A stretch of DNA of 64,000 nt. Origin: Elusimicrobiota bacterium (lineage in GTDB: Bacteria > Elusimicrobiota > Elusimicrobia > UBA1565 > JACRDR01). A program made the position numbers and the translations under genes. Below, piece by piece: positions 9,539 through 64,000 of this stretch (position 1 is its first letter; each line of letters starts with the position of its first letter). The DNA is taken from assembly GCA_026388115.1 (NCBI GenBank), contig JAPLKK010000015.1, positions 2,988 through 66,987 on the forward strand. The letters are read 5' to 3'. The notes beneath the pieces were generated by a model. The model searched no databases. It saw nothing but the letters and a program-made list of their open reading frames with translations, and was not told the DNA's origin.

Positions 9539-9544
9539 CAGAGG

Positions 9545-9636: not shown

Positions 9637-9640
9637 CGAT

Positions 9641-18096: not shown

Positions 18097-18288
18097 CCGG
18101 CGACGTCCCGGTGGAGAGGCTGTGGAAAAGCTGTCAAGAACTCCGGTCTTTACGGGATCGTCGCGGCGGCCTGGGGATACTGTGAATACCTCTGGCGAGT
18201 TTTCAACAGAAAAGAAGGGCGCCGCTTCGATGATGAATCCACTTTATCCACAAAATGAGGCCGCCTATGAAGGCGAGGACTATGTTCT
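18097..18288. other. dnaA-dnaN intergenic DnaA-box cluster.
   Basis: Perfect TTATCCACA at 18244-18252, plus TGTGGAAAA at 18121 and TGTGAATAC at 18181. Confidence 0.6.
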
Positions 18289-19398
18289 ATGAAAATACAT
18301 TGTAGTAAGGCTGATCTGTCGAGAGGCGTACAGACCATCCAGTCCGCGCTCTCTTCCCGGACGACGCTTCCGATCCTCCTGAACTTCCTTGTCGAGACCG
18401 AGGACTCGAAACTCAAGCTGGTCTCGACGGATCTTGAGATGGGAGTCAAGCATTACATCCCCGCCGAGATTGAAACAGGGGGAAGCATCACGATCCCCGC
18501 TAAGAAGTTCTCGGACATCATCCATACCCTGCAGGACGAGCACGATATCGACTTGACGGTCGAGCCGGGCGGGAAGGTGCAGCTCAAGAGCGGCCGTTCC
18601 CGCTTTTCGATCATCGGGGCGCCAAAATCGGAATATCCGGTCCTGCCGGAGTTCAACCAGACCGGCTCCTTCTCGATCAAGGCGACGACCCTTGAGGAGA
18701 TGGTCCGAAAGACCCTGATCGCGGCCTCTTCCGATGAGAGCCGTCACGCCCTCAACGGCTGCTTCTGGGTGGGGCACGAAGGGAATCTTGAGATGGTGGC
18801 GACCGACGGGCGGCGGCTGGCGATCATCAAGCGCGCTTGCCTTCCAAAAGACAAGGAGTTCCGGGTGATCGTGCCGACGAAGATCCTTACCGAACTCTTG
18901 AGGCTGCTTTCCCAGGAGAAGGCGGGGGAGGACGATCAGGTCCAGGCCGGCGTGACCGATAATCAGATCGCCTTTCAGTATAAGACGACGACGCTGTTGT
19001 CTCGCCTTGTTGAGGGGAGCTTCCCGAACTACGAGCAGGTGATCCCGGTCAAAAAGGACCTTCAAGTCCAGCTGGATACCAAAGCCTTCGTTCAGATCAC
19101 AAAGCGCGCCTCTCTCTGCGCTTCCGACCGCGGGGGCTCGGTCAAGTTCACGCTTCGTCCGGGCGCCCTCCATGTGTACGCTTCAAGCCCAAATCTTGAG
19201 TTCGACGACGAGCTTGCGGTGGATTATAAAGGCGGAGAGTTCTCGGTTGCCTTCAACCCGCAGTTCATCCTCGACGGGCTGAAAGCGTTCGACTGCGATA
19301 AGGTGATGCTGAGCCTGACGGCGCCGGTGAACCCGGCTCTGTTCGAACCGCTAGGGGAGACCGATTATAAGTACGTCGTGATGCCGATGCGGGTTTAG
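18289..19398 (+). CDS. dnaN: DNA polymerase III beta sliding clamp.
   Basis: Three-domain beta-clamp homologue located immediately after dnaA. Confidence 0.93.
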   Translation: MKIHCSKADLSRGVQTIQSALSSRTTLPILLNFLVETEDSKLKLVSTDLEMGVKHYIPAEIETGGSITIPAKKFSDIIHTLQDEHDIDLTVEPGGKVQLKSGRSRFSIIGAPKSEYPVLPEFNQTGSFSIKATTLEEMVRKTLIAASSDESRHALNGCFWVGHEGNLEMVATDGRRLAIIKRACLPKDKEFRVIVPTKILTELLRLLSQEKAGEDDQVQAGVTDNQIAFQYKTTTLLSRLVEGSFPNYEQVIPVKKDLQVQLDTKAFVQITKRASLCASDRGGSVKFTLRPGALHVYASSPNLEFDDELAVDYKGGEFSVAFNPQFILDGLKAFDCDKVMLSLTAPVNPALFEPLGETDYKYVVMPMRV

Positions 19399-19403
19399 CG
19401 ACG

Positions 19404-23634
<4,231 letters not shown>

Positions 23635-23635
23635 G

Positions 23636-24051
23636 ATGAGGAAGAACGCGCTGCGATTCGCGGCGCTGGCCGCGGCGCCCTGGCTCGCGGCGCAGGCCGC
23701 CGGGGCCTCGGCGGGGCCGGTGCTGACGCTCACCGTCGGGGAGCTTGACCACGCCGGCAAGGCTTTCGAGTGCCGCCTCTACATCAACCACCCCGAGTTG
23801 AAAGGGCGCGAGCAGCAGCTGGACGGCTGGATCGCGGCCGCGGTCCGCGCCCCTTTCTTGGAAGAGAGGCATGTCGCGGCGACCGTACCCTCGGTGGAGT
23901 ATGCCGCCTACGCGCACCAGCCCGGCAAGAAGCGCAAACTGGCGCGCAAGAAGGTCGTGTTGTCGCTCGACCACGGCACGCTCAAGCACCGGACGGGACC
24001 TGAGGCGGAAGAGCTGATCGCTTTGACCAAACGATTGTGTCGGGAGAACCC

Positions 24052-24055
<4 letters not shown>
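23636..24055 (+). CDS. Hypothetical secreted protein.
   Basis: Signal peptide [13 protein letters not shown]. No recognisable domain. Confidence 0.45.
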
Positions 24056-26580
<2,525 letters not shown>

Positions 26581-42414: not shown

Positions 42415-42463
42415 ACCCTCACCCCGGCCCTCTCCCGCCGTAGGCGGGAGAGGGAGAAGGACT
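42415..42463. repeat. GC-rich REP-like hairpin repeat, copy A. It acts as a bidirectional terminator-like hairpin between convergent genes.
   Basis: GAACCCTCACCCCGG CCCTCTCCCGCC gta GGCGGGAGAGGG AGAAGG. The 12-bp perfect stem spans 42428-42454. Confidence 0.7.
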
Positions 42464-43382
42464 ACTGCCAGGAATCGGGGATGTTGAGCTTGCGGCGAAG
42501 GTCCGTGCGCACCTGCTCCATGCACTGGGCGACGGGAGCGGAGTCGCTCGGCCCCGCCCGATATAGTTCGGTGAAGCGGCTCCAGCCCTGGCGCGGCATG
42601 CCTTTCTCGGCGTGGTCGAAATACAAGGACAAGGCCGCGCTCAGATACTCGCCGGTGGTCTGCGTGGCGCGCGGATCGAGCGCCGCGAGCCTGCCCTCGA
42701 TGTCCGCGATGTGGCTGTCGAACCAGCCGGCGTAGCGCTGGGAGGCGGGCTCGAGGGCGCCGTTCTTGAAGGCGTAGATCGAGCTGCGATAGGCGAAGCG
42801 CGCCATCGTGTGGAATCCGCCGCACTCGACGTCGAAAAGCGAGCCGAGGGGAAGCGAGCGCGTCACGACCTCGGGCTGGCCGTCGCCGTCGAGGTCCTGC
42901 AGCCGCCCTTCCGGCAGGGGCGTCGATTCCGGCGACGCCTTTCCGGCGGAGAACCGCACCAGCCGCAGGGAGCTCGTTCCCAGCGCCGAGATCGAGTAGG
43001 CCAGCGTCGGCTTGCCGTCGCCGTAGAGCGCCGGCATCTTCCCTCCGTCGTGCACGTGCTCCAGCGCGATGCGGTGGCTCGAGCTGAGCTCCAGGTAGCA
43101 GAGCTGCGCCGCGCGCCCCTTGCCCAGCCAGACGCGGAGGCGGTCATGGTCGCCGGAGGGGTCTTCGAAGACATAGACGCCGTACCAGGAGCCGCCGCCG
43201 GCCGGGACGAGGAGCTTGCGCTTGACCGACCAGCCTTGCGAGACCACCTTCTCGGCCTCTGTCGCCATCGCGTCTTTCGCGGTGTTCGTGGCGGCGCGGG
43301 CGGGGAAAGGCGACGCGAGGCACGCGAGCGCGGCCCAGGCGAGGACGCTCCGCCTCACGGCCTCACCGCGAAGCGCTTCCAC
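42462..43382 (-). CDS. Hypothetical secreted protein.
   Basis: Signal peptide. No recognisable domain. Confidence 0.4.
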   Translation of the reverse strand: MEALRGEAVRRSVLAWAALACLASPFPARAATNTAKDAMATEAEKVVSQGWSVKRKLLVPAGGGSWYGVYVFEDPSGDHDRLRVWLGKGRAAQLCYLELSSSHRIALEHVHDGGKMPALYGDGKPTLAYSISALGTSSLRLVRFSAGKASPESTPLPEGRLQDLDGDGQPEVVTRSLPLGSLFDVECGGFHTMARFAYRSSIYAFKNGALEPASQRYAGWFDSHIADIEGRLAALDPRATQTTGEYLSAALSLYFDHAEKGMPRQGWSRFTELYRAGPSDSAPVAQCMEQVRTDLRRKLNIPDSWQ

Positions 43383-44269
43383 ATCTCTTCGGTGCTCAAG
43401 AGGGAGTCCGAGCCGTCGCGGTCATAGGCCAGCCACCCTTGCGGCGTGTCGAGGCAGCAGGTCCAGCCTTCGGCGGTCACCAGCTCGAGGCGCAGGCGGG
43501 GGTCCGGCATGCGCGGCACGGACTTCACCCACAGCGCGCCCTTGCCCGGCTTGTAGTAGCCGATCGCGCGGCCGGCCGCGCCCTCCTCCGGCACCGACCC
43601 GAACCCGTGGACGACGAGCGCGCGCCCATCGGGCGAGAGGGCGAACTCGTCGACGCGCTCCCAAGCCGTGTAGTCCAGGCGCAGGATCTCGATGCCGCCC
43701 GGGCTGATGACGCTGAGCAGCGGGCGGTTCCTCGTGTAAGGGTCCACGTCTTCGAGCAGGAGGGCCACGGTGCCGTTGGGCGCGATCTGCAGGTGCTGGG
43801 GGTCGGCGCTGCGGCCGACCTGCGTGTTGTCCGCGGTGCGCCGCTCCCAAAAGATGCGGCTCGACTCGTCGACAAGACGGAAGAGCGAGCGCACGACCGT
43901 CGCCTTCGGCTTGTCGCGGGCGCGGCGCTCGGCGAGGTGCAGGCCCACCTCGCTGCGCGTCTCTTCCACGACCAGGAAGCGGTGCCCGCGCGGCGGAAGC
44001 AGGGCGCGGTACGTCGCGCCTTTGGGCGGGCGCCGGTCGGGCCGGGAGAGCGGGAAGCGGTGCAGGACGCTGTCTTGGCGCGAGAGCACCTCGATGTACG
44101 GCGAGCCGGGGGTCCACCGGAGCCGCTCGGAGCCGGTGTCCATCACCATCGTCTCGCCCGAGGCGGCGCGGCCTTCGATGGAGGGGCTCGGCGGCAGGCT
44201 GAGCTCCGGCATGTCGTCGGCGGCCGCGGGCCAGGGGGCGAGCGCGAGGAGCAAAGCGAGGAGGCTCAT
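43355..44269 (-). CDS. Hypothetical secreted protein.
   Basis: Signal peptide MSLLALLLALAPWPAAA. Preceded by the conserved 46-nt leader element. Confidence 0.45.
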   Translation of the reverse strand: MSLLALLLALAPWPAAADDMPELSLPPSPSIEGRAASGETMVMDTGSERLRWTPGSPYIEVLSRQDSVLHRFPLSRPDRRPPKGATYRALLPPRGHRFLVVEETRSEVGLHLAERRARDKPKATVVRSLFRLVDESSRIFWERRTADNTQVGRSADPQHLQIAPNGTVALLLEDVDPYTRNRPLLSVISPGGIEILRLDYTAWERVDEFALSPDGRALVVHGFGSVPEEGAAGRAIGYYKPGKGALWVKSVPRMPDPRLRLELVTAEGWTCCLDTPQGWLAYDRDGSDSLLSTEEMWKRFAVRP

Positions 44270-44315
44270 TGCGTTTCTATAAGGTGCGTGCCTGGCTTCA
44301 GCCCGGCACGCTACC
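44270..44315 (-). promoter_or_regulatory. Conserved hairpin-containing 5' leader, copy 1 (with a -10-like TATACT just upstream).
   Basis: The reverse complement reads GGTAGCGTGCCGGGCTGAAGCCAGGCACGCACCTTATAGAAACGCA immediately before the ATG. It matches 42 of 46 nt of the copy at 50323-50368. Confidence 0.6.
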
Positions 44316-44369
44316 CCAGTATAGGCCGACTTTGTTTCGCCCGCCAGTAGCGGAAGCCGCTCGACCGAG

Positions 44370-44786
44370 CTAGCTCGAGCGCCGCTGCCTGAAGCGGTGG
44401 ATCTGCTGGGCCATGATCGGCCCCCAGGCGTTCTTGCCCGCGTAGCCGGTCATCGCCGGAAAGAACAACGCTCCTCGCACCGCGCCGGCGCTCGCATGCA
44501 GGATGGGAGGGACCGCTTCGGCGCGGGTCCCCTCCTGGGACTCGAACATCGAGAGGGCCGCGCCGCCGGCGGCGAAAGCGACGACCACCGGAGCGGTCCA
44601 GCCGTACATCGCGGCGAGCCCCGCGATGGCCAGGGGCGGCAGGCCGCAGGCGGCGTACGCCAGGGCGGAGCCGGCGGCCGCCTCCCGGCTTGTCGGCGCG
44701 TCGCGGTTCACCGGCGCCTGGATCGCCGGCGGCGCCGTGAACGGCATGAGGAGCGCCAGCCCCAGAGAGGCGACCCGTGGAGTCAT
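44370..44786 (-). CDS. Hypothetical small membrane protein.
   Basis: Hydrophobic, Ala- and Gly-rich ORF. Weak call. Confidence 0.3.
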   Translation of the reverse strand: MTPRVASLGLALLMPFTAPPAIQAPVNRDAPTSREAAAGSALAYAACGLPPLAIAGLAAMYGWTAPVVVAFAAGGAALSMFESQEGTRAEAVPPILHASAGAVRGALFFPAMTGYAGKNAWGPIMAQQIHRFRQRRSS

Positions 44787-44934
44787 CTCCCGGATCGTAC
44801 CGGCAAGAGGCCGTAGGAACGAGGGCTGGGCGACCCTAAAACGCCTGGGGCGTGGGTACCGTATTCCTTAAAACATCCGGCACCGGAGACCTTTTCGAGC
44901 CGGCAGCCCGCGCGAGATCCTTCGCGCTACGCGG

Positions 44935-46314
44935 TCACCACACGAAGGTGCCGGCCGCGCCCGGATTGAGCACGGCGGCGAAGGTCTTTCCTTCGTCGCT
45001 CACGCGGAAGGTCCGCGCCGAGGCTCCGTCGTTGAGTACGATCAGGGCGGTCTTCCCGTCCGGGGTCTTGAAAGCGACGTTCGGCAGGTCCGGCGGGAGG
45101 TTCGAGCCTATCCTCACCGAGCCGGGGCGGATGAACTTGGCGGCCTGGGCCACGATGTAATAGGCGGGGTTCCTCTTTATCCCCCCACCGATGGTGAGCG
45201 CCCCCAGGCAGGTCTCGCAGCCGCCGGGGGTGTGCGGATCGTATGCCGGATCCGAGGCCAGGTTCCATTCGAGGGCGGTCTTGCTCCAATTCCGCATGGA
45301 GCCGATGATGACGGTTTTCACATGCCAGCGGAAATCCTCGGCCAGGTTCCCCGGAGCGCCCACCCACTGCTCCGTGAAATAGACGTTCTTGTCCGGATGA
45401 GCGTCATGCACCACGGAGAGCGCCGAGATGTCGCCGGCATAGAGATGGAAGGCCGAGCCGTCGACGAACCGGCGAGCCTGCTCGTCTTCCAGTATGGAGA
45501 GCGGATAGCCGGGCTCGTCGCAATTGTGGTCGTAGAGGAGGATCTTCGTCTTGATCCCCTCCCGCGCGAAAGCAGGGCCCAGATCGTATTTGATGAAATC
45601 GCGCTGCTTCGCCGGGGTCATGATCATGCTGGGCTCATTGTCAGGGTTCAGCGGCTCGTTCTGGACCGTGACCGCGTCGATGCGTATCCCCTCTTCTTTC
45701 ATGGCCCGGAGGTAGCGGACGATGTAGCGGGCATAAGCCCCGCTATCGGCCAAGCTGCTGCCGATGAAGGTGGGCCGCGCCTTCATCCACGGCGGCGGCG
45801 ACCATGTCGAGGCCAGCAGCTTGAGGTCCGGGTTGATGGCAAGGATCCGCTTCAGCACCGGCACGAGATTTTTCTTATGCGGCCCCAAACTGAAGTTCTT
45901 CAGCCCCGGGTCCTTCTGGCCGGGCGGCATGTCGTCATACGAGAAAGCCGCGGGATCCAGGTCCGACGCCCCCAAACTGATGCGCAGATAGCTTGTCCCT
46001 ATGCCGTCGCCTTCGGGCGAAAAGAGTTCTTTCAGCAGAGCGCCGCCTTCATTGGCCTCAAGCGCGTCGATCATCATCGCGCTCCCGCCGGTGAGGGTGT
46101 AGCCGAAGCCGTCCACGGTCTGGAAGGTCGCGCCGTGGTCCACGACGATGGAGGCGGCGGCGCCCCCCGACGGCGGGGACGCATGCTGCTTGCGCAACAG
46201 GACGGACCCGGCCGGGTCCGTGAGCCAGAATTCAGGAGTGATCTCAGACCCGCTCGAACGGACCGCGGCCGCGGCCACGAGGGCGGCGGCGAGGAATAGG
46301 TGGAACGGTCTCAC
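44935..46314 (-). CDS. Glycoside hydrolase family 30-like secreted protein.
   Basis: Signal peptide, a TIM-barrel region with the VQNEP catalytic-acid motif, and a C-terminal beta domain. Confidence 0.7.
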   Translation of the reverse strand: MRPFHLFLAAALVAAAAVRSSGSEITPEFWLTDPAGSVLLRKQHASPPSGGAAASIVVDHGATFQTVDGFGYTLTGGSAMMIDALEANEGGALLKELFSPEGDGIGTSYLRISLGASDLDPAAFSYDDMPPGQKDPGLKNFSLGPHKKNLVPVLKRILAINPDLKLLASTWSPPPWMKARPTFIGSSLADSGAYARYIVRYLRAMKEEGIRIDAVTVQNEPLNPDNEPSMIMTPAKQRDFIKYDLGPAFAREGIKTKILLYDHNCDEPGYPLSILEDEQARRFVDGSAFHLYAGDISALSVVHDAHPDKNVYFTEQWVGAPGNLAEDFRWHVKTVIIGSMRNWSKTALEWNLASDPAYDPHTPGGCETCLGALTIGGGIKRNPAYYIVAQAAKFIRPGSVRIGSNLPPDLPNVAFKTPDGKTALIVLNDGASARTFRVSDEGKTFAAVLNPGAAGTFVW

Positions 46315-47339
46315 AGCCAGCGTTTCTTAAGAAGGGCTTCGGCGATCTGCACGGAGTTCAGCGCCGCGCCCTTGAGCAGGTTGTCGCTCACGATCCAGAA
46401 CGCCAGCTCGCGCGGGTTCGTGCCCTGCCGGATGCGCGCGACATGGACGGGCCAGCTTTCCCCCTCCTCGAGAGGGGTGGGATAGGAGCCCTCCTTCCAA
46501 AGCCGGACGCCCGGAGCGTTCTCCAGCGTCCGCCGAGCGGCGCCGGGCGAGAGGGGCCGGCGCGCCTCCAGCCAGAAGGCGAGGCTGTGGCCGCGGATCA
46601 CGGGCACTCGCACGGTCGTCGCGCTGACGGGCAAGCCGGGCAGGCCCCAGATCTTGCGCAGCTCCCCCCTCACCTTGACCTCTTCGGAGCACTCGCCGTC
46701 CCGGTTGAAGGAGCCGACCTGCGGGATGACGTTGAAGGCGGACATGCGCGGCAGCGCGCGGGCGGGCGCGAGCTGCGGGATGCCGAGAGGATCGCTCTTG
46801 CGCAGCACGCCCGCCGCGCCGCGAAGCTGGGCGCGGAACTCCTCGAGCGCCTCGCGGCCGGCGCCCGAGATCGCTTGGTACGAGGCGAGGCGCGCCGCCC
46901 GCGCTCCGGCCCGGCGGATGAGGGGCCACGCCGCGACGGCCGCGCCCGTCAGGGTGCAGTTCGGCCCGGCGATGAGCCGGCGGCGCGGCGAAAGGGCCCC
47001 GGCGTTCACCTCGGGGATGACGAGGGGGACGTCTTCGGCCAGACGGAAGGCGGAGGAGTCGTCGATCACCCACACGCCGCGCTCGGCGAGCGCCCTTCCC
47101 CACCGCAGCGAGACCTCGTCGGAGGAGACCATGAACACGAGCCGGGCCTTCGCCAGGGCGTCGAGCGTGACGCCGCGCGCGGCGACGGCGCGGCCCCGGA
47201 AGCGCACGGCGCCGGCCCTGCGGCCGGAATTGAACGGGAGCAGGGCCCCGACGGGGAAGCGGCGCTGCTCGAGCACCTGCAGGAGCACCCGTCCGACCAG
47301 GCCCGTCGCTCCGACGACGGCGATAGTGAGGCCGCTCAT
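46311..47339 (-). CDS. asd: Aspartate-semialdehyde dehydrogenase.
   Basis: VVGATGLVG NAD(P)-binding motif, the active-site Cys region (GPNCT) and a full-length 342 aa. Confidence 0.88.
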   Translation of the reverse strand: MSGLTIAVVGATGLVGRVLLQVLEQRRFPVGALLPFNSGRRAGAVRFRGRAVAARGVTLDALAKARLVFMVSSDEVSLRWGRALAERGVWVIDDSSAFRLAEDVPLVIPEVNAGALSPRRRLIAGPNCTLTGAAVAAWPLIRRAGARAARLASYQAISGAGREALEEFRAQLRGAAGVLRKSDPLGIPQLAPARALPRMSAFNVIPQVGSFNRDGECSEEVKVRGELRKIWGLPGLPVSATTVRVPVIRGHSLAFWLEARRPLSPGAARRTLENAPGVRLWKEGSYPTPLEEGESWPVHVARIRQGTNPRELAFWIVSDNLLKGAALNSVQIAEALLKKRWL

Positions 47340-48325
47340 GGCGCCAGCCACACGCCGTCGCAGTGGCCCTCGTTGTGCAGCTGGTCGCGCGCGACCGCGC
47401 GGACCCACGCGCCGCGCGAGGAAAGCTTCGAGCGCCGGACCGTCATCAAGAACGGCGGCTCGCGCCGGTACGCGGAGAGCCGTTCCCAGTCGAGCTGGTC
47501 CGTGGAGCTCTCCAGCCAGGCGGCTTCGATCCCATCCCCGTCGGCGGTGAAGCGGTAGACGAAATCCGCTCCGGCGGGCGCCGCGGCGCATTCGCGCACG
47601 GCGACCGTCGCGTCGTTCGGCGGCACGAGCTTGATGGCGAGAGCGGGCTTGAAGTTGTTGAGCGGCGTCTCGAGCGTCCCTTCAGCCCTTCGCGGCGCGA
47701 CGCCGCCGAGCGACCGGTTGTTCCAGGCCCGAGGCTCCTCGCTGGCGTTCGAGCGTTCTTCCAACGCCGCAAGGATCGGCGCGCTCGAGGACCCGACGAG
47801 ATAACGTGTGGTGGACCAGACGATCAGATAGTTCGGGCCCGAGAAGCTGATCATGCCTGCCGGCACTTCCGTCCAGAACCATACCGCGTGGCCCGTTCCC
47901 GGCATGTAAACGTGCGGGTCGTCCTCGAGAGGGATGTCGGCCGTCTCGGTCAGGAAGTAGCTCCGCTCGGCCGTGAAGGAAGGCGTCGGCGCGATGGCCA
48001 TGTAGATCTTGCCCGGGATCACTTCGCGTTCCCAGGGCCGCCCGCCCGGCTTTGCGCGGGTCTTGGCCCGCCCGATCTTCGCCCCGATGAACGCGCGCGA
48101 GTACTCGCCGATCGGCGCGGGCGGCAGCGCGACGATCCAAGCGTTGTTGAAGCCGATATACCAGTTCTCATCGGGCCCGCCGTCTGCGAAACGACCGAAG
48201 TCATTGATGTTGGAGTTCAAGGACACATAGACTGGCAATCGGCTCCGCTGCTCGGTCGAAGGGCCTTCCGTCAGTACTTCCTGCGCAAGGACTGAATATG
48301 CAAATAATGCTGTAAATATAATCAT
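47336..48325 (-). CDS. Hypothetical secreted protein.
   Basis: Signal peptide MIIFTALFAYSVLAQ. The stop overlaps the asd start. Confidence 0.45.
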   Translation of the reverse strand: MIIFTALFAYSVLAQEVLTEGPSTEQRSRLPVYVSLNSNINDFGRFADGGPDENWYIGFNNAWIVALPPAPIGEYSRAFIGAKIGRAKTRAKPGGRPWEREVIPGKIYMAIAPTPSFTAERSYFLTETADIPLEDDPHVYMPGTGHAVWFWTEVPAGMISFSGPNYLIVWSTTRYLVGSSSAPILAALEERSNASEEPRAWNNRSLGGVAPRRAEGTLETPLNNFKPALAIKLVPPNDATVAVRECAAAPAGADFVYRFTADGDGIEAAWLESSTDQLDWERLSAYRREPPFLMTVRRSKLSSRGAWVRAVARDQLHNEGHCDGVWLAP

Positions 48326-49200
48326 TTATTGATAATACCAACCACGCGCTCAAAGTCTTCGAGGCTATAGAAGTGGATGGTCAGAGTGCCCCTTCCCCCC
48401 TTCTTCGTCCTGATGGCCACCTTCGTCCCCAACCGTTGCTGGAGCGCGGCTTCCACTTCGCGCGTATCGGCGTCCTTGGCGGCGCCCGGCTTCTCGCGTC
48501 TTGGCTTGGGAGAAGGCATGCTTCCGTTCGCCTTAGCCACGAGTTCGTCTATGTCACGGACCGATAGCTTTCCCTCGATGGCGGCCATGAAGATGCGGTG
48601 GCGTTCCACCGGATCCGGGCACTTGAGAAGAGCTCGACCGTGCGCTTCCTGCAGGTCGCCATGCAGTATCGCCTTCTGCATTTCGTCAGGCAAGTCCAGG
48701 ATATGCAAGGTATTGGATATAGATTGCTTGGATTTTCCGACCATTTCGGCGACGCCATTCTGGTCTAGCCCGAATTCTTTCTGAAGACGGCAATACCCCA
48801 GGGCAGCCTCCACTGCGTTGAGATTCTCCCTTTGCAGGTTCTCCGCCAAGGATAGCGACAAGCGGTGCTTGTCCTCGGCCGGCTGACGGATCACGACCTC
48901 GATTTCGGTAAGCCCGGCAAGCTCGCAAGCGCGCAGTCGACGTTCGCCTGCGATGAGTTCGTAGGTCCCATCTGCGTCTGCAGAAACCACGATAGGTTGG
49001 GCTAGGCCGTGCAGCTTGATCGAGCCAGTGAGTTCGCTCAGCGCCTCGGCGTCGAAATGGCGGCGAGGCTGAAGGTGGTTGGGCCTGACTTTGGAGATGG
49101 GCACTCGCAGAGGTCTCGCCTCCAATGACGCCGGCTCGGCGGTCGCTACGGGTTGCGAAGGGATCAATGCTTCAAGTCCACGCCCTAGTGCGTTTCTCAT
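48322..49200 (-). CDS. parB: ParB/Spo0J partition protein.
   Basis: ParB box II (LIAGERRLRAC), HTH region, C-terminal dimerisation region. GC is ~58%, lower than the local average. Confidence 0.88.
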   Translation of the reverse strand: MRNALGRGLEALIPSQPVATAEPASLEARPLRVPISKVRPNHLQPRRHFDAEALSELTGSIKLHGLAQPIVVSADADGTYELIAGERRLRACELAGLTEIEVVIRQPAEDKHRLSLSLAENLQRENLNAVEAALGYCRLQKEFGLDQNGVAEMVGKSKQSISNTLHILDLPDEMQKAILHGDLQEAHGRALLKCPDPVERHRIFMAAIEGKLSVRDIDELVAKANGSMPSPKPRREKPGAAKDADTREVEAALQQRLGTKVAIRTKKGGRGTLTIHFYSLEDFERVVGIINK

Positions 49201-50033
49201 GAGATGTTCTCCAAAGGCCGAGCGGGTTCTTCGACGGCGAAGCTTGGCGGCGGCGTTTCTCCCGCGACGATTCCCCTTCGAAGGAGGAATTCGCGCGCCA
49301 TGGCCATATAAGCCTCGGCTCCCTTAGACCTCGAGTCGTACTGGAAGATATCTTTTCCGAATCCGGGGGCTTCGGCCAGGCGGATGCTCCGAGGAATTAT
49401 GGTATTGAAAAGCTTTTCTCCAAAGAACTTCTTGACTTCGTCCCTCACTTGGTTTGAAAGAATCATTCGGGAGTCGAACATCGTGAGCACCGCCCCCTCA
49501 AGCCTTAGCTTCGGGTTGAATGCTACCTGCACCCGTCGAACGGCATCCATGAACTGAGCCAACCCCTCCATCGCATAATACTCGCCTTGGATGGGGACAA
49601 TCACGCTTTCGGCGGCATTAAGAGCGTTGAGGGTGATGAGTCCTAGAGACGGCGGGCAATCCAGGATGATGAACCTGTATTTGTCCTTGATCGCTGGTAT
49701 GGCGCCCTTGAGCCGGCGCTCCCTGGCCAGGGCGGACAAGAGTTGTATCTCCGCGCCGGCCAAGTCGGAATTAGCTCCGGTCACATGCAGTTTTTGCAGG
49801 GCGGATGCTTTGATGGTTTTTTCTAGAGGCAGAAGTTCGACAAGGACGTTGTATAGGTTCGGAGAGAACGCGGCTTTGTCAAAGCCGCAACCAGTAGTGG
49901 CATTGCCCTGTGGATCGGTGTCTATCAAGAGCGTTTCGAATCCGAGCCCTGCTAGGGCGGCGGCCAGGTTAACGGCGGTCGTCGTCTTGCCAACCCCCCC
50001 TTTTTGATTCGCAATCGCTATTATTTCTGTCAT
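49197..50033 (-). CDS. parA: ParA/Soj partition ATPase.
   Basis: Deviant Walker A KGGVGKTT. Start taken at the internal ATG (MTEIIAIANQ). The stop overlaps the parB start. Confidence 0.88.
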   Translation of the reverse strand: MTEIIAIANQKGGVGKTTTAVNLAAALAGLGFETLLIDTDPQGNATTGCGFDKAAFSPNLYNVLVELLPLEKTIKASALQKLHVTGANSDLAGAEIQLLSALARERRLKGAIPAIKDKYRFIILDCPPSLGLITLNALNAAESVIVPIQGEYYAMEGLAQFMDAVRRVQVAFNPKLRLEGAVLTMFDSRMILSNQVRDEVKKFFGEKLFNTIIPRSIRLAEAPGFGKDIFQYDSRSKGAEAYMAMAREFLLRRGIVAGETPPPSFAVEEPARPLENIS

Positions 50034-50054
50034 TTTTGTGCCCTGGAGCGATAA

Positions 50055-50072
50055 AGTACAACCGATTGTACT
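50055..50072. promoter_or_regulatory. Palindrome AGTACAACCGATTGTACT upstream of parA (candidate operator).
   Basis: 7-bp inverted arms with a 4-bp spacer, 22 nt upstream of the parA start in an AT-rich ~330-bp intergenic region. Confidence 0.35.
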
Positions 50073-50322
50073 GCGTGGGCTGCTTCGGTGATGAACTTTA
50101 CCAGATAGTGCGCCTGGTGTCAAACCGTTGACATAACAGCGCCGACATATTTAGGTTGACTATGGTATTTAGTGCTATTAAACATCTTATTCGATTGTCT
50201 GGTATCATATAGTGTTTAATACTCTAAAAGTCGTGGCGCCTCGGCGGCCCCCCCCGCGCCATGCCAGGGCGTCAGATCGAGCGCACGAAGAATCCGGGCC
50301 GGTCAAAAACGCTAGAATGAGC

Positions 50323-50368
50323 GGTAGCGTGCCAGGCTAGAGCCAGGCACGCACCTCATAGAAACGCA
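50323..50368 (+). promoter_or_regulatory. Conserved hairpin-containing 5' leader, copy 2 (with a -10-like TAGAAT at 50313).
   Basis: GGTAGCGTGCCAGGCTAGAGCCAGGCACGCACCTCATAGAAACGCA immediately before the aguB ATG. Confidence 0.6.
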
Positions 50369-51220
50369 ATGAAAAGAGCGACGCTCTCCATCGGACTGAT
50401 CCAGTTGAAGCCGACGGAGGACCCGCGGAAGAATCTCGCGCACAGCCTGCGGCTCGCGAGCGCCGCGGCCGGCCGCGGGGCGAAGATCATCTGCTTCCCG
50501 GAGCTGTACCGCTCGCGCTACTTCCCTCAAAAAGACAAGGCGCGCGCGCGGCATCTGGCTGAGACGATCCCCGGCGAGTCCACGCGGGCGTTCTCGCGGC
50601 TGGCCGCCGAGCGCGACGTCGCGGTCATCGTGCCGCTCTTCGAGCGCGCCGGGGAGAGATTCTTCAATTCCGCCGCGGTGATCGACGCGGGGGGGAAACT
50701 CCTCGGGACCTACCGCAAGGTCCACGTCCCGCATGACCCGCTCTTCTACGAGAAGAGCTATTTCGCGCCGGGCGACCTCGGCTTCAAGGTCTTCCGCACG
50801 CGCTACGCGAGGGTCTCCGCGCTCATCTGCTACGACCAATGGTTCCCCGAAGCCGCGCGGGCGAGCGTCCTGGCCGGCGCCGAGATCCTGTTCTATCCGA
50901 CGGCGATCGGCGCCATCCGCGGGTACAAGCCTCCGGAGGGGGACTGGCGCGAGGCCTGGGTCACCATCCAGCGAGGGCATGCCATCGCCAACGGCGTGCA
51001 CGTGGCGGCGGTCAACCGGACGGGCGTCGAAGGCAGGCTTCGTTTCTTCGGCACGTCTTTTGTCGCCGACGCTTTTGGGAACGTGGTCAAGCGCGCGAGC
51101 ACGGGCCGCGAAGAGGTGCTCGTCGTCCCGGTGGACCTCTCGATGAACCGCGAGATCCGGGACGGCTGGGGCTTCTTGCGCAACCGCCGGCCGCGCTGCT
51201 ATCGCCCGCTCGTGGCCTAG
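50369..51220 (+). CDS. aguB: N-carbamoylputrescine amidase (carbon-nitrogen hydrolase family).
   Basis: Nitrilase-superfamily Glu-Lys-Cys triad context (CFPEL, RKVH, ALICYD). Confidence 0.85.
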   Translation: MKRATLSIGLIQLKPTEDPRKNLAHSLRLASAAAGRGAKIICFPELYRSRYFPQKDKARARHLAETIPGESTRAFSRLAAERDVAVIVPLFERAGERFFNSAAVIDAGGKLLGTYRKVHVPHDPLFYEKSYFAPGDLGFKVFRTRYARVSALICYDQWFPEAARASVLAGAEILFYPTAIGAIRGYKPPEGDWREAWVTIQRGHAIANGVHVAAVNRTGVEGRLRFFGTSFVADAFGNVVKRASTGREEVLVVPVDLSMNREIRDGWGFLRNRRPRCYRPLVA

Positions 51221-51221
51221 C

Positions 51222-52268
51222 GTGCCCTACCCAAAGATGACCGACACGCCGCGTTCGCTCGGCTTGCGCATGCCCGCCGAGTGGGAGCCGCACGAGGCGA
51301 TCTGGCTCTCCTGGCCGCATGACCCCGAATCGTTCGGCGAAGGTTTGCCCGGGGCCGAGCGCGCCTACGTCGAGATGATCCGCGCCATCCATAAGACCGA
51401 GCGCGTGGAACTCTTCGTGCTCGACGAAGAGATGCGCCGGCGCGCGTTGGACGTCCTCGACCGCGCCGGCGCCGACCCGGCGCGCGTGCGCTTCCACGTC
51501 CACCGTTACGCCGACGTCTGGTTCCGGGACTACGGCCCGACGTTCCTCGTCGGCGGCCGCCGATCGATGGTCCACTGGATCTTCAACGCGTGGGGGAACA
51601 AGTACGAGGAGCTCAAGTCCGACACGGAGATCCCGCGCCTGATCGAGAAAGAGCTCCGGATCGAGACCTTCCGCCCCGCCGTCGTGATGGAGGGGGGGTC
51701 TATCGACGTGGACGGACAGGGGACGCTCCTGACGACCGAGCAGTGCCTCCTGAACCCGAACCGCAACCCGAGCCTGTCCCGCGCCGATATCGAACGCGAG
51801 CTGTTCGAGAACCTGTCCGCCGCGCGGGTGATCTGGCTCAAGGAAGGCATCGCCGGCGACGACACCGACGGGCACGTCGACGACATCGCGCGCTTCGTCG
51901 CGCCGCAGACGGTCGTCTGCGCCCGGGAGGACGATGAATCCGACGAGAACTTCGCTCCCCTCGACGAGTGCTTCCGGGCCCTGGAGCGCGCGCAAGACGC
52001 TCGCGGACGCAGGCTGAACGTCGTGCGCCTGCCGATGCCGGAGCCCGTGTCAGCGGGCGGCCGCCGGCTTCCCGCGAGCTACGCGAACTTCTATATCGGC
52101 AACGGCGTCGTTCTGGCGCCGGTGTTCGGCTGCCGGCAAGACGACGCCGCGCTGAAAGTCCTGGAGGGGGTCTTTCCGGGCCGCCGCATCGCGCCCATCC
52201 CGTGCCGCGACCTCGTGCGCGGTTTGGGCACGGTCCACTGCGTCAGCCAGCAGCAGCCTAGGGGCTAA
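51222..52268 (+). CDS. aguA: Agmatine deiminase.
   Basis: Porphyromonas-type peptidyl-arginine deiminase fold motifs (PAEWEPH ... GTVHCVSQQ). Confidence 0.85.
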   Translation: MPYPKMTDTPRSLGLRMPAEWEPHEAIWLSWPHDPESFGEGLPGAERAYVEMIRAIHKTERVELFVLDEEMRRRALDVLDRAGADPARVRFHVHRYADVWFRDYGPTFLVGGRRSMVHWIFNAWGNKYEELKSDTEIPRLIEKELRIETFRPAVVMEGGSIDVDGQGTLLTTEQCLLNPNRNPSLSRADIERELFENLSAARVIWLKEGIAGDDTDGHVDDIARFVAPQTVVCAREDDESDENFAPLDECFRALERAQDARGRRLNVVRLPMPEPVSAGGRRLPASYANFYIGNGVVLAPVFGCRQDDAALKVLEGVFPGRRIAPIPCRDLVRGLGTVHCVSQQQPRG

Positions 52269-54280
52269 GGCTTCGCTGCGGGCGCCGGAGGCCGCTCGGG
52301 CGCGGGCAGCGGGTCGGACACGGGCTCCGAAGCCGGGGCGACGGGGTGCTCGATGTAGGTGTACTCCCGCATCGTCGCCTCGTACTGGTTCAGCAGGTCG
52401 ACGCCCTCGCGAGGCTTGATCGCGCCCGCTTTGACGTGCGCGTCGATGGCGGTCTTCACGTTCTTGACGAGCTCGAAGTCGCTGTATTGGATGCCCGCCA
52501 GGACGTCGCGGATGGTCTGCCCTTCGATCACGTCCTCGATGTAATAGCCGCCGGGCTCCTCATCGTCCTCGAAGACGTGCACCTCGTTGACGCGGCCGAA
52601 GAGGTTATGGACGTCGCCCATCGTGGCCTGGTAGGCCCCCATGAGGAACATGCCGAGATAATAGGGTTCGCCGGGCTTGAGCGGGTGCACGGGCAGGGCG
52701 CCGCCGGACTTGCGGTGGCAGGGGAACTGCGTGACCTTGCCGTCGGAGTCGCAGGTCGCGTCCGCCAGCGTCGCGCGGCGGGTCGGCTCCTCGTTGAGGC
52801 GCTGCAGCGGCATGATGGGGAAGAGCTGGCCGATCGCCCAGGAGTCCGGCAGGGACTGGAAGACCGAGAAGTTGCACATGTACTGGTCGAGGGTGGTGCG
52901 CGTCATCTCCCGAAGGTCCTCGGTCAGGTACTTGGCGGTCGGCATGAGCCGCCGGATCTCGCGGCAGACGCGCCAGAACAGCGACTCGACCCTGGCCCGG
53001 TCCTCCAGGCCCAGGTATCCCAGGTTGAAGAGGCTGAAGGCCTCGTCCTTGCGCGCCTGGGCGTCGTGCAGGCTTTCGGCGAGGTTGCGCGGGTCGATGC
53101 TCCCCAGGACCTCGCGCATCGCGGTGACGACCTGATGCTCGTCGGGCGACGCCGCCGGCTCCGGGCCCGCCGCTCCGGACTCGATCGCGCCGAAGACGTT
53201 GACCACGAGGACCGAGTGGTGGGCCACGACGGCGCGGCCGGACTCGGTCACGATGTTCGGCTCGGGCACGCCTTCCTGCTTGCAGACCTCCTGGATGAGG
53301 CTCACGACGTCGTTGACGTACTCGCGCAGGTTGTAGTTCGTGGAGCTGTCCTGCGAGGTGTGCGTCCCATCGTAGTCCACGCCGAGGCCGCCGCCGCAGT
53401 CCAGGTACTCCAGCTCGAGGCCGAGCTTGCGCAGCTTCGCGTAGAAGCGCGCCCCCTCTTTCACCGCCCCTTGGATGGCGCGGATGTCGGTCACCTGCGA
53501 GCCGAGGTGGAAATGGAACATCTTGACCGCGTCCGCCAGACCCGCGGCTTTCAAGTCGCGCACCGCGGCCAGGATCTCGGGCGTCGTCAGGCCGAATTTC
53601 GCCTTGTCCCCGGAGGAGGCGGCCCATTTGCCGCTGCCCGGGGCGAGGAGCTTGCCGCGCAGGCCGATGAGGGGCCGCACGCCCGATTCCTGAACGGCCT
53701 TGACGAGGAGGGGGACCTCGCCGGGCTTCTCGATGACGACGATCACCTTCTTGCCGAGCTTGACGCCCAGCAGGGCGAGCCGGATCATCGACTCGTCCTT
53801 GTAGCCGTTGATGACGGTGAGCGCTTCGGGGCCGTTCATGCCGAGCACGGCGATGAGCTCGCCCTTGGAGCCGGCCTCGAGCCCGAACTGGTAGGGCGCG
53901 CCCGCGTCGAGGATCTCCTCGACCACCTCGCGCATCTGGTTCACCTTGATCGGATAGACGCCGAGATAACGCCCCTGGTACTTGTGGGCGTCGATCGCCT
54001 GCTTGAACGCCGCGTTGAGCTGTTCGACGCGGTGGCGCAGGACGTCCTGGAAGCGGAACAGGACCGGCAGCTTGATCCCGCGCTGGGAGACCTCGTCGAC
54101 GACGCGCTTCAAGTCGAAGAAGCGCTTCGTCTCGCGCCGCGGGTGCAGCTGCAGGTTCCCGCCGGCGCCGATGTCGAGATACTTCAGGCCCCAGCCTTTG
54201 AGGTTGTAGAGGGCGGCCGAATCCTCGATGGTCCAGCCGCGGGGGCGCTCCGCCCCCCTGCCGTTGTCGCCCTGGCCCAT
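52265..54280 (-). CDS. speA: Biosynthetic arginine decarboxylase.
   Basis: PLP fold-III decarboxylase with SpeA-specific motifs (YPIKVNQ, HFHLGSQ, EYLDCGGGLGVDYDG). 671 aa. Confidence 0.9.
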   Translation of the reverse strand: MGQGDNGRGAERPRGWTIEDSAALYNLKGWGLKYLDIGAGGNLQLHPRRETKRFFDLKRVVDEVSQRGIKLPVLFRFQDVLRHRVEQLNAAFKQAIDAHKYQGRYLGVYPIKVNQMREVVEEILDAGAPYQFGLEAGSKGELIAVLGMNGPEALTVINGYKDESMIRLALLGVKLGKKVIVVIEKPGEVPLLVKAVQESGVRPLIGLRGKLLAPGSGKWAASSGDKAKFGLTTPEILAAVRDLKAAGLADAVKMFHFHLGSQVTDIRAIQGAVKEGARFYAKLRKLGLELEYLDCGGGLGVDYDGTHTSQDSSTNYNLREYVNDVVSLIQEVCKQEGVPEPNIVTESGRAVVAHHSVLVVNVFGAIESGAAGPEPAASPDEHQVVTAMREVLGSIDPRNLAESLHDAQARKDEAFSLFNLGYLGLEDRARVESLFWRVCREIRRLMPTAKYLTEDLREMTRTTLDQYMCNFSVFQSLPDSWAIGQLFPIMPLQRLNEEPTRRATLADATCDSDGKVTQFPCHRKSGGALPVHPLKPGEPYYLGMFLMGAYQATMGDVHNLFGRVNEVHVFEDDEEPGGYYIEDVIEGQTIRDVLAGIQYSDFELVKNVKTAIDAHVKAGAIKPREGVDLLNQYEATMREYTYIEHPVAPASEPVSDPLPAPERPPAPAAKP

Positions 54281-55335
54281 TACTTGCGGGCTTGGGCGAG
54301 CTCCTTCTCGTTGAGGAAGGCGTTGAAGCGGCGCTCGGCGCGGCCCTTCCAGGAGCCCTTGTGATAGGCGTAGCCCGCGAGGAGCGGGAAGGCCAACGTC
54401 GCCTCGGCGTACACCATCTGCTCGTGCACCACGTCGACCTTGCCCCAGGAGCAGGCTTCGCGCAAGGTCGAGCCCGAGAGGCCGCCGTCGCGCTCGTCGG
54501 CGACGGTGATCTGGACGGCGTATTTGTGCATCGGGGACTCGAGGCCGAGCATCTCGGTCGCGACCACGATATCCTGCGCGAAGTTCTTCGGCACCCCGCC
54601 GCCGATCATGATCAGGCCGGTCTCCTCGGCCTCGATCTTCAGCCTTGCGAGCTCGAGGAAATCCTTGGCGGAGTCGATCGAGACGTGGCGGTCCGGGCTG
54701 TGCCACTGATGGTGCAGGAGGCCCATCCCCGCCGAGCAGTCCGAGAAGGCGGGCACGAAGATCGGCACGCCTTTCTCGCAGCAGACGCGGACGACGGAGT
54801 CCTTGGCCTTCGGGCGCTTGGCGAGGAACTTCCCCATCTCCTCGATGAACTCGCGCGAGGAGTACGGCTTGGGCTCGAGGCTCTCGGCGATCTTGGCGAT
54901 CGTGTTGTCGCACTCGCCGAGCTCGTCCTCGTCGATGAAGGTGTCGTAGATGCGGTCCACGCGCACCGAGCGCAGCTCCTTGTCGTTGACGAAGGGCGTG
55001 CCGCGGTAATGCTTGTAGCCGAGGGCCTCGAAGAAGTCCTGGTCGACGATGTTGGCGCCCGTCGAGACGATGGCGTCCGCCATATTGTTGGCGACGAGGT
55101 CGTACACGACGCGCTTGAGCCCTGCCGAGAGGAGCGAGCCCGCGAGGCACAGGATGACCGAGCAGCCCTTGTCGGCCAGCATCCGGTCGTAGATCTCGCA
55201 GGCGCGCGCGAGGTTGCGGGCCTGGAACGCCATCTTTCCCATGGCCTCGACCAGCGGGACCACGTTGTGGCGGGCGATCTCGATGTGCTCGATGGGCTCT
55301 TTCAGGAAATCCTTCTTGCCGATGTTCTTCGCCAT
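54280..55335 (-). CDS. Deoxyhypusine synthase-like protein (putative homospermidine synthase).
   Basis: DHS-family fold motifs. A 351-aa protein whose stop overlaps the speA start. Confidence 0.7.
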   Translation of the reverse strand: MAKNIGKKDFLKEPIEHIEIARHNVVPLVEAMGKMAFQARNLARACEIYDRMLADKGCSVILCLAGSLLSAGLKRVVYDLVANNMADAIVSTGANIVDQDFFEALGYKHYRGTPFVNDKELRSVRVDRIYDTFIDEDELGECDNTIAKIAESLEPKPYSSREFIEEMGKFLAKRPKAKDSVVRVCCEKGVPIFVPAFSDCSAGMGLLHHQWHSPDRHVSIDSAKDFLELARLKIEAEETGLIMIGGGVPKNFAQDIVVATEMLGLESPMHKYAVQITVADERDGGLSGSTLREACSWGKVDVVHEQMVYAEATLAFPLLAGYAYHKGSWKGRAERRFNAFLNEKELAQARK

Positions 55336-55459
55336 GGTCCTCACCTTTGGAGCGGACGCCCGCGCGAACGCACGCGCGTACGAGGGGCCATGATAGCAAA
55401 GGTCTTCCGTCGACGACAAATCTCCTGCGAAGAAACGTCCAGTTTGGTACACTCGAACC

Positions 55460-56686
55460 GTGCTGTGGCTGGCTCTTGCGGCGTTCGCGTCCGCCGCGCA
55501 CGCGGCGGACCCGGTCAGGCCCTCGACCGCCGCCGCGGCGGTGGCGCTGCCTTCCCCCGGCCCGATCGTCCATCCGACCGGACGCACGCGCCGGCGCCGC
55601 CCGCGCTACAAGAACGGAGTGCCGGTGACGCAGGTCCATAAGGTCCGTCCGCGCGAGCCGGTCCTCAAGGCGACGGGCTGGACGCCCGAGGTCCGCAGGG
55701 CGCTGGAAGAGCTCATCGTCGCCCGCAGCTCGATGTCCAAGACTTACGACGCGGACCGGCCGCCGGTCGCCGTCTTCGTGGCCGAGGACGCGGCCATCGT
55801 CCATCATCCGGCCGAGGTCTCGTTCTTGCGCCTCATCGAGCGCGCGGAGTTCCGGTTCTCCCCGGCTTGGTGGGAGCTGATCCCGATGGAGCTGCGCCAG
55901 CGGGCCCGGCTCGATCACAAGCATTTCTCGTCCCGGCCGCCGGCGACCTGGCCGCGCGACGAGGACTATCTCGACTGGCGCAAGACGATGCTCGACGCCT
56001 ACGCGCTCAAGTGCCGCCGCGACGGCACGCGCAACTGCCGCGGGTGGCTGACCAGCCTGCTGATGGGGCCGAAGGAGCGGGAGGCCGAGCAGTATGAGCG
56101 CGGGGCGCTCGAGGACGCGTTCCACGAGCCGCTGGTCGAGGAAATGATCCGGGCGAACGCCGGAGACGAGCACCCGGCGAGGGTGGGCCGCGGGGTCCGG
56201 CGCGTGCCCGAGATGATCGAGCTGACCCGCGAGCTGAAAAGAGCCGGCTTCGACGTGTGGCTCTTCAGCTGGTCCAGCCAGTGGATGGCCGAGGCGATCG
56301 CGGCGCGCTACGGCATCGATCCCAAGCGCGTGGTCGGGGCGCGGGTGAAGATCGTCAATACCGTCCTGCAGTCCGACCTCATCGACCCGGTCACCGACGG
56401 CCCCGGCATGGCCGAGGCGGTGACGGTCTTCATCGCACGCGACCCCGCGCTCATCGTCGCAAGCCCGCACGAGCTCGAGCTGCTCGGCTACGGCAAGGGG
56501 CTGAAGATCGTCATCGACCGCGGAGACGGGCTGGCTGGAGCGCGCGCCAAGGAGCGCGGCTGGCTGCTGCAGCCGCCCTTGCCGCCGGCGCCTCCGGAGA
56601 CCGAGCCGGCACCCGAGGTCGCTCCGGTCAAGGAGCCGCCCGCGGCCGCGCCGAAGGCCAGGCCGGAGAGCCCCGATTTCCCATGA
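55460..56686 (+). CDS. Hypothetical secreted protein with a Pro/Ala-rich C-terminus.
   Basis: Signal peptide MLWLALAAFASAAHA. No confident domain call. Confidence 0.4.
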   Translation: MLWLALAAFASAAHAADPVRPSTAAAAVALPSPGPIVHPTGRTRRRRPRYKNGVPVTQVHKVRPREPVLKATGWTPEVRRALEELIVARSSMSKTYDADRPPVAVFVAEDAAIVHHPAEVSFLRLIERAEFRFSPAWWELIPMELRQRARLDHKHFSSRPPATWPRDEDYLDWRKTMLDAYALKCRRDGTRNCRGWLTSLLMGPKEREAEQYERGALEDAFHEPLVEEMIRANAGDEHPARVGRGVRRVPEMIELTRELKRAGFDVWLFSWSSQWMAEAIAARYGIDPKRVVGARVKIVNTVLQSDLIDPVTDGPGMAEAVTVFIARDPALIVASPHELELLGYGKGLKIVIDRGDGLAGARAKERGWLLQPPLPPAPPETEPAPEVAPVKEPPAAAPKARPESPDFP

Positions 56687-63948: not shown

Positions 63949-63994
63949 GAACCCTCACCCCTCCCTCTCCCGCCGGAGGCGGGAGAGGGAGAAC
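63949..63994. repeat. GC-rich REP-like hairpin repeat, copy B.
   Basis: GAACCCTCACCCCT CCCTCTCCCGCC gga GGCGGGAGAGGG AGAACGG. Nearly identical to copy A at 42415-42463. Confidence 0.7.
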
Positions 63995-64000
63995 GGCGAC

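Follow-up and report, generated by a model that had tools for sequence, protein, structure and literature searches.

The GTAG-tagged repetitive extragenic palindromes (REPs) and the small miniature inverted-repeat transposable elements (MITEs) co-opted as 5' untranslated regions (5' UTRs), such as the Correia elements (PMC2649163), are the closest known kinds to a 46-nt block that stands immediately upstream of the start codons of two genes, the polyamine synthesis gene aguB and a gene without family match, here called gene X. Both genes lie in a 64,000-nt stretch of DNA of an uncultured Elusimicrobiota bacterium (metagenome-assembled genome, assembly GCA_026388115.1, contig JAPLKK010000015.1, positions 2,988 to 66,987 of the forward strand), which was analysed as a whole and is referred to as the window. 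The GTAG REPs possess stems of 6-13 bp, with mismatches in the long-stem GTAG-24 type, short loops and a tolerance of G.U pairs (Di Nocera et al. 2013, PMC3733652). REPs are high-copy elements, dispersed in tens to hundreds per genome among unrelated flanks and found mostly 3' of genes, between unidirectional or convergent open reading frames (ORFs), often as dimers. The Correia repeat-enclosed elements (CREEs) are co-transcribed as the 5' UTR of the downstream gene and can change its expression (PMC2649163). They measure 100-155 bp, end in inverted repeats, duplicate a TA at the target, contain a site for the integration host factor (IHF) and are processed by RNase III. A hairpin at the extreme 5' end is also the classical protection of bacterial mRNAs from 5'-end-dependent decay, with ompA as its paradigm; the 5' UTR of E. 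coli ompA, reportedly described by Emory, Bouvet and Belasco in 1992, is said to carry a 5'-terminal stem-loop that stabilises the mRNA.

The 20-40 bp imperfect palindrome with terminal GTAG that defines a REP is found in the block as G-GTAG-CGTGCC.GGC(4 nt)GCC.GGCACG, the stem having 12 bp and a single mismatch. As in the GTAG REPs (PMC3733652; Nunvar et al. 2010, PMC2817692), the terminal GTAG is followed by a GC-rich imperfect palindrome, as in the GTAG-24 type the 12-bp stem is broken by a mismatch and closed by a loop of 2-4 nt, and the element tolerates G.U, is species-specific and differs between close strains. Two copies of the block were seen in 64 kb; unlike typical REPs they are single and not dimeric, lie between promoter and start codon and share a non-palindromic tail of 13-16 nt, and no REP-associated tyrosine transposase (RAYT), other transposase, recombinase or nearby regulator was found among the ~52 window genes. 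With the Correia elements and MITEs (Neisseria; PMC2649163) it shares the character of a small, non-autonomous and strain-polymorphic palindromic insertion predicted to be part of a 5' UTR; however, it spans 46 bp only, its 13-bp stem is too short for RNase III, and no target duplication accompanies it, 7 target nt being replaced instead. Judged by the positions of the -10 elements, the transcripts would resemble those with ompA-type stabilisers in having a stable hairpin within their first few nt, followed by a single-stranded initiation region, but they would lack a Shine-Dalgarno (SD) sequence downstream of the hairpin. What is unusual about the block is that it takes the place of exactly the stretch that leads from the -10 element to the start codon in two ancestrally leaderless genes, brings its own SD-less initiation tail and is still polymorphic against a leaderless allele in a 99%-identical strain. 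A literature search on leaderless mRNAs in Elusimicrobia returned nothing relevant. We know of no described natural indel that switches the same gene between the leaderless and the leadered state in 99%-identical strains.

The reading favoured here, to which we give about an even chance, is that of a young, lineage-restricted cassette of ~46-48 bp, composed of a GTAG-tagged GC-rich imperfect palindrome and a 13-nt A-rich tail, REP-like in kind, which was written into the -10/start gap of two ancestrally leaderless genes, probably from aguB to gene X, and made both of them leadered with a shared stem-loop. Relatives and one 99%-identical strain are without the block and, by their promoter geometry, would start translation at the first base of the mRNA; the block is accordingly read as a 5' leader of recent origin by copying, and not as a regulatory RNA of great age.

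Two copies of one hairpin-bearing block

The two copies are identical at 42 of the 46 positions before the ATG, and at 46 of 50 when ATGA is included, and the similarity stops abruptly on both sides; the near-identity placed ahead of both ATGs by an earlier inspection of the DNA (the sequence-only reading) is thus confirmed in its positions and extent, as is the unrelatedness of the sequences past the block. No other inverted repeat of the window is as long as this pair, whose copies agree over 50 nt at 92% identity and are separated by 6007 nt, and a degenerate 49-mer has exactly two matches, 44267-44315 (minus strand) and 50323-50371 (plus strand), where 0.00 were expected from 100 shuffles. 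Since the same block sequences recur in three independent Logan assemblies (the aguB copy in L001 and L002, the gene X copy in L003), they are no assembly artefact. Reading on from an in-frame stop, the first start codon reached in either gene is this ATG, and the N-termini of both proteins align with those of their orthologues. Two further resemblances between the loci were rejected: upstream of the block the identity is ~46% over 28 nt, which is the level of composition, and a conserved small ORF on the opposite strand is not sustained, as the ATG of the aguB copy reads ATA in the gene X copy.

The RNA of each copy folds into a 13-bp stem, GGU-A-GCGUGCC-N-GGC / 4-nt loop / GCC-A-GGCACGC-ACC, the irregularities of which are a bulged A and a 1x1 mismatch (A.A or G.A). 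The minimum free energies are -28.3 and -29.0 kcal/mol in 68-nt windows, with z-scores of -4.7 and -3.5; the hairpin that had been proposed is accordingly real, though with its 13 bp slightly larger than the 12 bp ascribed to it. The stem is followed by 13 unpaired nt, U(C/U)AUAGAAACGCA, and then by the AUG, and no SD sequence occurs in either tail, as had been noticed before. Hexamers resembling -10 elements do precede both copies, although at 2 nt (gene X) and 4 nt (aguB) and not at the 3-5 nt originally given; the block fills the gap after a genuine -10 element and had rightly been taken for essentially the whole interval from there to the start codon.

Filled and empty alleles in strains and relatives

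Further strains were drawn from the 90% protein clusters of the two genes. The contig L115, 96.4% identical to the window, contains the aguB block with one change, C6>T, by which a C-G pair becomes U.G, and the contig L106, 92-98% identical to the window, contains the gene X block. A third contig, L116, matches L106 at 99.05% identity along 7.27 kb, with 27 mismatches spread from end to end and no divergent imported tract around the site, and yet its gene X reads TATACT-aagccc-GTGAGCCTCCTC, with the block absent and the N-terminal protein sequence the same. The empty TATACT AAGCCCG TGAGCC of L116 thus stands against the filled TATACT AG(block)A TGAGCC of L106: 7 nt (AAGCCCG) are replaced by 49 nt, no target-site duplication is seen in this comparison, and the start codon is GTG in the empty allele and ATG in the filled one. 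The empty allele cannot be derived from the filled one by deletion, and on this pair of alleles the block behaves as an indel segregating in the population. The block is present at both loci in each of two lineages, 2-8% apart (the window; L106/L115), and its loop is locus-specific in both lineages, UGAA at gene X and UAGA at aguB; the duplication therefore predates the split of the lineages. Gene X also differs between these contigs in its surroundings: proA-proB (2.5 kb, divergent from gene X) lie between a 133-aa gene and gene X in L106 (6093-8532) and L116 (1137-3576), and are absent at window positions 44316-44369 and in L107, with the breakpoint ~35 nt upstream of the -10 hexamer of gene X.

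The block is absent from the orthologues of aguB (70-77% identity) and of gene X (64-77%), and the portability that had been suggested for it is borne out both by these orthologous promoters and by its presence or absence between 99%-identical strains. In five orthologous promoters (L107, L108, L116, L110 and L111) a -10 element precedes the start codon by 6-8 nt, the geometry of leaderless mRNAs, and the hexamers of the window are therefore the ancestral promoters. From the same spacing we infer that the ancestral state of both loci was a leaderless mRNA and that the block would now occupy the former 6-8 nt spacer. At many other genes of the window that come first in their operons, such as those with promoters at 44786 (minus strand), 61789 (plus), 58685 (minus) and 11359 (minus), the start codon likewise follows a -10-like hexamer at 6-9 nt (TACGAT+7, TAGAAT+9, TACACT+8, CATAAT+9), without an SD sequence, which suggests that leaderless mRNAs may be common in this organism. 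In L102, where aguB has a short leader, TAGAAT is followed 7 nt later (566-600) by the ATG of a five-codon mini-ORF, MKTRM*, that overlaps the real aguB start (ATGTGATGATG) and may be what is left of a leaderless start, or else an upstream ORF that is itself leaderless.

Within the public data, the block is confined to one species-level lineage. A covariance model built from three block copies and run with the filters off revealed no third copy in the 64-kb window or in ~85 kb of related Elusimicrobia contigs; a weak match between aguA and parA in L103 (15 bits, E = 0.064) aligned poorly, had a fold z-score of 0 and was taken as chance. In 596 Gb of species-representative genomes the hairpin core gave 98 loci, all of them unrelated chance hairpins, one per genome and none with the tail. 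The 3' arm with ACC matched neither metagenome nor viral contigs (0 matches in each), and the tail with ATG had three metagenome matches, without the hairpin and in DNA of 40-57% GC, and 0 viral ones. Other GTAG-tagged hairpins in the window are chance stems of 8 bp only, and the protein database holds no relatives of either gene between 77% and 99% identity.

Origin of the shared leader and competing explanations

According to the favoured reading of a young copied cassette, the ancestral -10 elements would still fire and transcription would start within the first few bases of the block, making the latter the whole 5' UTR; should the ancestral distances from the -10 element to the start (6 nt and 8 nt) be kept, transcripts of both genes would begin at the same base, G5 of the block. 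The mRNA would then open with a stable stem-loop (~-25 kcal/mol) and continue into an unstructured, A-rich and SD-less AUG region. Because the 5'-terminal AUG would be gone, the leaderless initiation, for which the ancestral alleles have the -10-to-start geometry, would be lost, and SD-independent internal initiation at the exposed AUG would take place instead in the derived alleles. The 5'-terminal stem-loop may shield the transcripts from 5'-end-dependent decay, and if it shields both of them, the two genes would share one post-transcriptional setting; a common trans-acting factor is conceivable. The gain and loss of 5' UTRs in bacteria is rarely caught in the act, and gene X, with its leaderless allele and its allele with a 46-nt hairpin leader, offers a natural isogenic pair for the effect of a 5' stem-loop and an SD-less tail on mRNA stability and translation. 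The main value of the locus is that of a natural experiment on leaderless against leadered expression, and it bears on whether small palindromic repeats supply ready-made leaders and whether copying puts unrelated genes under one post-transcriptional regime.

The aguB copy is the likely source of the gene X copy, to judge from the alleles compared. The block at aguB is filled in every strain sampled and that at gene X is polymorphic; the native start of aguB is ATG (ATGAAA or ATGAAG in relatives) and the native start of gene X is GTG. Filled gene X has ATG, and therefore the copied tract would have taken in the A of aguB and ended in the shared TGA. The route may have been templated copying guided by microhomology, through a template switch or ectopic conversion, over 6 kb and in inverted orientation, and close inverted sites together with a strong hairpin in the tract are conditions that favour template switching. 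The case resembles the quasipalindrome and template-switch mutations in that donor and recipient are 6 kb apart and inverted, the tract is a short hairpin and the junctions have a microhomology of 1-3 nt (TGA on the right), but differs from a clean template-switch product in its left junction, which is not a clean join.

The block is well conserved between the lineages (44/46 and 45/46 identical positions, 96-98%), as are the first 300 nt of both coding sequences (97.3-97.7%), against 78.4% for the 37 nt that precede the block of gene X and 82.1% for the 289-nt parA-aguB spacer; the difference between block and flanks gives a Fisher p of 0.0018, and of 0.056 with the nearest flanks alone. Five columns vary, namely two in the loop, the one of the internal mismatch, one in the tail, and that of the C-G to U.G change C6>T, which preserves pairing on the sense RNA strand only. 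The block thus appears to be either constrained or else recently homogenised, and selection at the level of structure is without statistical proof. A pairing of loop and tail, G14-C35 in aguB and A14-U35 in gene X, looks like a compensatory G-C to A-U change; this pseudoknot was rejected as sterically impossible, since the tail at the foot of the 13-bp helix cannot reach the loop, and the block of L106, which has A14 together with C35, counts against it as well.

Several points weigh against the favoured reading. The left junction is predicted as TATACTAAG + GTAGCG and observed as TATACTAGGGTAGCG and TATACTGGGGTAGCG, and needs one extra substitution or a 1-nt insertion; the source of the aguB copy itself is left unexplained; the count of two copies covers these 64 kb of the genome only; and the status of the block as 5' UTR is taken from promoter geometry alone. 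The covariation check in relatives, proposed with the sequence-only reading, turned out negative: 12 of the 13 pairs never vary among the four distinct sequences of the two loci, 0 pairs are changed on both sides, and the bias of the variable sites to unpaired columns is not significant (P = 0.10). Moreover, the conservation could reflect a recent recombinational spread among strains and not selection.

This last point leads to the strongest competitor, to which we allow about half the credence of the favoured reading, namely that the block is selfish or neutral DNA, a REP- or MITE-like palindrome or a one-off product of template switching that landed harmlessly and has no regulatory role, its conservation being due to youth and recombinational spread. 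The GTAG tag and the imperfect stem of 12 bp, interrupted by a mismatch and closed by a short loop, do fit the GTAG REPs, notably the long-stem GTAG-24 type (PMC3733652), and a neutral passenger is further supported by the relatives without the block, by its variable presence between 99%-identical strains and by the want of covariation. Only two copies were seen in the window, however, and they have in common a non-palindromic tail of 13-16 nt and their position relative to the ATG, as independent REP insertions would not; REPs lie mostly 3' of genes, the window has no RAYT or transposase, and the block is far better conserved than the adjacent intergenic DNA. If neutral, the block is simply a REP-like insertion in an unusual place. 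It is rather unlikely that the block represents a very small non-autonomous element, or a cassette copied time and again, that is inserted specifically in the -10/+1 gap of leaderless promoters, i.e., the single-stranded bubble of the open complex, and turns leaderless genes into leadered ones; if true, this would be an undescribed route to new 5' UTRs and shared post-transcriptional control, still segregating in a natural population. Marginally less credible than such targeted writing is a DNA operator, in which the 26-30 bp palindrome at +1 to +30 would bind a dimeric repressor and one transcription factor would govern both promoters. The near-perfect palindrome directly downstream of the -10 element in both promoters, with its conserved stem, is what an operator would look like, but the 13-nt tail would be unneeded and is equally conserved, C6>T in L115 breaks the DNA symmetry while the RNA pairing survives as G.U, and no regulator gene adjoins either locus. 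GC-rich arms of 12-13 bp around a 2-4 nt centre are, besides, commoner in RNA and REP hairpins than in operators.

The remaining explanations are improbable to varying degrees. A promoter might lie in the tail, where (C/T)ATAGA stands 6 nt before the ATG, at the spacing of the ancestral leaderless promoters, so that the genes would stay leaderless and the palindrome would be a control site in the -35/spacer region; this we consider a long shot, as the candidates CATAGA, TATAGA, ATAGAA and TAGAAA lack the final T that all leaderless -10 elements of the lineage possess (TATACT, TATAAT, TAAAAT, TAGAAT, TACGAT), the T at -7 being one of the two most conserved -10 positions, and as the ancestral hexamers are retained upstream. 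Still less probable is a small riboswitch or other conserved sensing RNA through which aguBA and gene X would both respond to a metabolite, for example a polyamine; it had in its favour a compact hairpin with a tail beside the start codon and the place of one of the two genes in polyamine synthesis. It did not hold up: Rfam gave no family at the gathering score in the window (a permissive scan of 50130-50420 had a best E-value of 0.58), no third copy turned up in the sequences searched, the orthologous leaders are without the block, no covariation is seen, and both copies expose the AUG, with no alternative fold and no SD sequence or terminator to sequester. The least credible of all is an invertible 6-kb segment, a promoter-swapping switch with the block copies as its inverted repeats, which the 50-nt inverted repeat around 6007 nt would suit. 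Relatives that lack the block have the order parA-parB-hyp-asd-...-gene X as well, and the interval, being syntenic there, is therefore not an inserted or invertible segment; one orientation is found in all contigs, L106 and L115 overlapping across the parA-aguB junction, no recombinase lies inside or beside the interval, and each copy simply has the orientation of its gene. The common regulation put forward in the sequence-only reading found no support and is not needed to explain the data, which are better explained by recent copying between promoters 6 kb apart than by a regulon.

Genes around the copies and other repeats of the window

The positions of the block copies, promoters and genes are collected in the table together with the promoters of relatives. 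The database proteins identical to the products of the two genes are MCX5787107.1 and MCX5787100.1, annotated as from an Elusimicrobia MAG. The pair aguB-aguA adjoins speA, and aguB is convergent with it. The structure model of the gene X product has a mean predicted local distance difference test (pLDDT) score of 76.6 and shows a six-bladed NHL/WD-like propeller with a template modelling (TM) score of ~0.4 to PDB entries; because the protein models as a generic beta-propeller without a family match, no functional tie to polyamines is seen, and the link between polyamine synthesis and gene X that had been drawn from the shared leader found no support.

Table. Positions in the window of the block copies, their promoters and the neighbouring genes, and the corresponding promoters in relatives
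Feature	Position	Strand	Description
Block copy 1, whole predicted 5' UTR of gene X	44270..44315	-	Hairpin 44315-44283, loop UGAA, G.A mismatch; tail 44282-44270 UUAUAGAAACGCA
Block copy 2, whole predicted 5' UTR of aguB	50323..50368	+	Hairpin 50323-50355, GTAG tag, 12-13 bp imperfect stem, loop UAGA; unpaired SD-less tail 50356-50368 UCAUAGAAACGCA
-10 hexamer of the gene X promoter	44318..44323	-	TATACT
-10 hexamer of the aguB promoter	50313..50318	+	TAGAAT; TAAAAT in strain L115
Gene X	43355..44269	-	304 aa, hydrophobic N-terminus, no family match, predicted beta-propeller; ATG here, GTG in the empty allele and relatives
aguB	50369..51220	+	Carbon-nitrogen hydrolase PF00795; best match N-carbamoylputrescine amidase TIGR03381, 281.7 bits, under the curated cut-off of 410
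aguA	51222-52268		Follows aguB; PF04371
6-kb interval between the copies	44316..50322		138-aa gene, GH30, asd-like, hypothetical, parB, parA, AT-rich parA promoter region
Gene X promoter, L107 (77% protein identity)			TATACT + tagccc + GTG
Gene X promoter, L108 (64%)			TATAAT + agccggc + GTG
aguB promoter, L110 (77%)			TAAAAT + 8 nt + ATG
aguB promoter, L111 (76%)			TAAAAT + 8 nt + ATG
aguB promoter, L102 (75%)			TAGAAT, then ~25-nt short leader with GAGGA
aguB, L103 (70%)			Inside an operon

The parA and parB genes between the block copies had suggested a plasmid origin, which was rejected: PLSDB gave no match, and the presence of dnaA, dnaN and gyrBA marks the window as the chromosomal origin region, with dnaA, dnaN, dciA, gyrB with an intein and gyrA. 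Within it, positions 16100-26580 comprise an AT-rich stretch (GC 0.585-0.59) followed by dnaA, dnaN, dciA, gyrB and gyrA, with parAB ~32 kb off, and gyrB (19687-23634, plus strand) encodes 1315 aa, the intein PF14890 being placed between the GyrB and Toprim domains. No consensus parS site was found in the window. The promoter and leader region of parA (50040-50230) shows TTGACA-17-TAAAGT with a TG extension, a palindrome GTACAACCGATTGTAC at 50056-50071, which is kept in L106, and an AT-rich segment that contains an inverted repeat, TATTAAACA/TGTTTAATA; L102 has a similar AT-rich segment, with TAGTGCTAT, upstream of aguB. On the minus strand, the mechanically called ORF of 1401 aa at 52265-56470 is over-extended, speA corresponding to its C-terminal ~670 aa, and in relatives a deoxyhypusine-synthase-like gene comes next.

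Other palindromes of the window are repeated as well. A second pair, at 9544-9637 and 14890-14977, consists of AT-rich hairpins of ~90 nt which lie at the minus-strand genes lepA and rapZ, are located between the stop of the upstream gene (ptsI and hprK) and the next ATG, and end 5 nt before the latter. Their arms share CATCAACTTAT(T/A)(C/G)AAC, with five matches against 0.03 expected, their stems have GGTG...CACC at the foot, like the block, and the rapZ hairpin is preceded by TATAAT and 2 nt. Finally, a repeated GC-rich hairpin, CCCTCTCCCGCCG(T/G)AGGCGGGAGAGGGAG, occurs at 42423-42465 and 63958-64000 with 86-90% identity, and its copy at 42423-42465, situated between convergent genes, is terminator-like.

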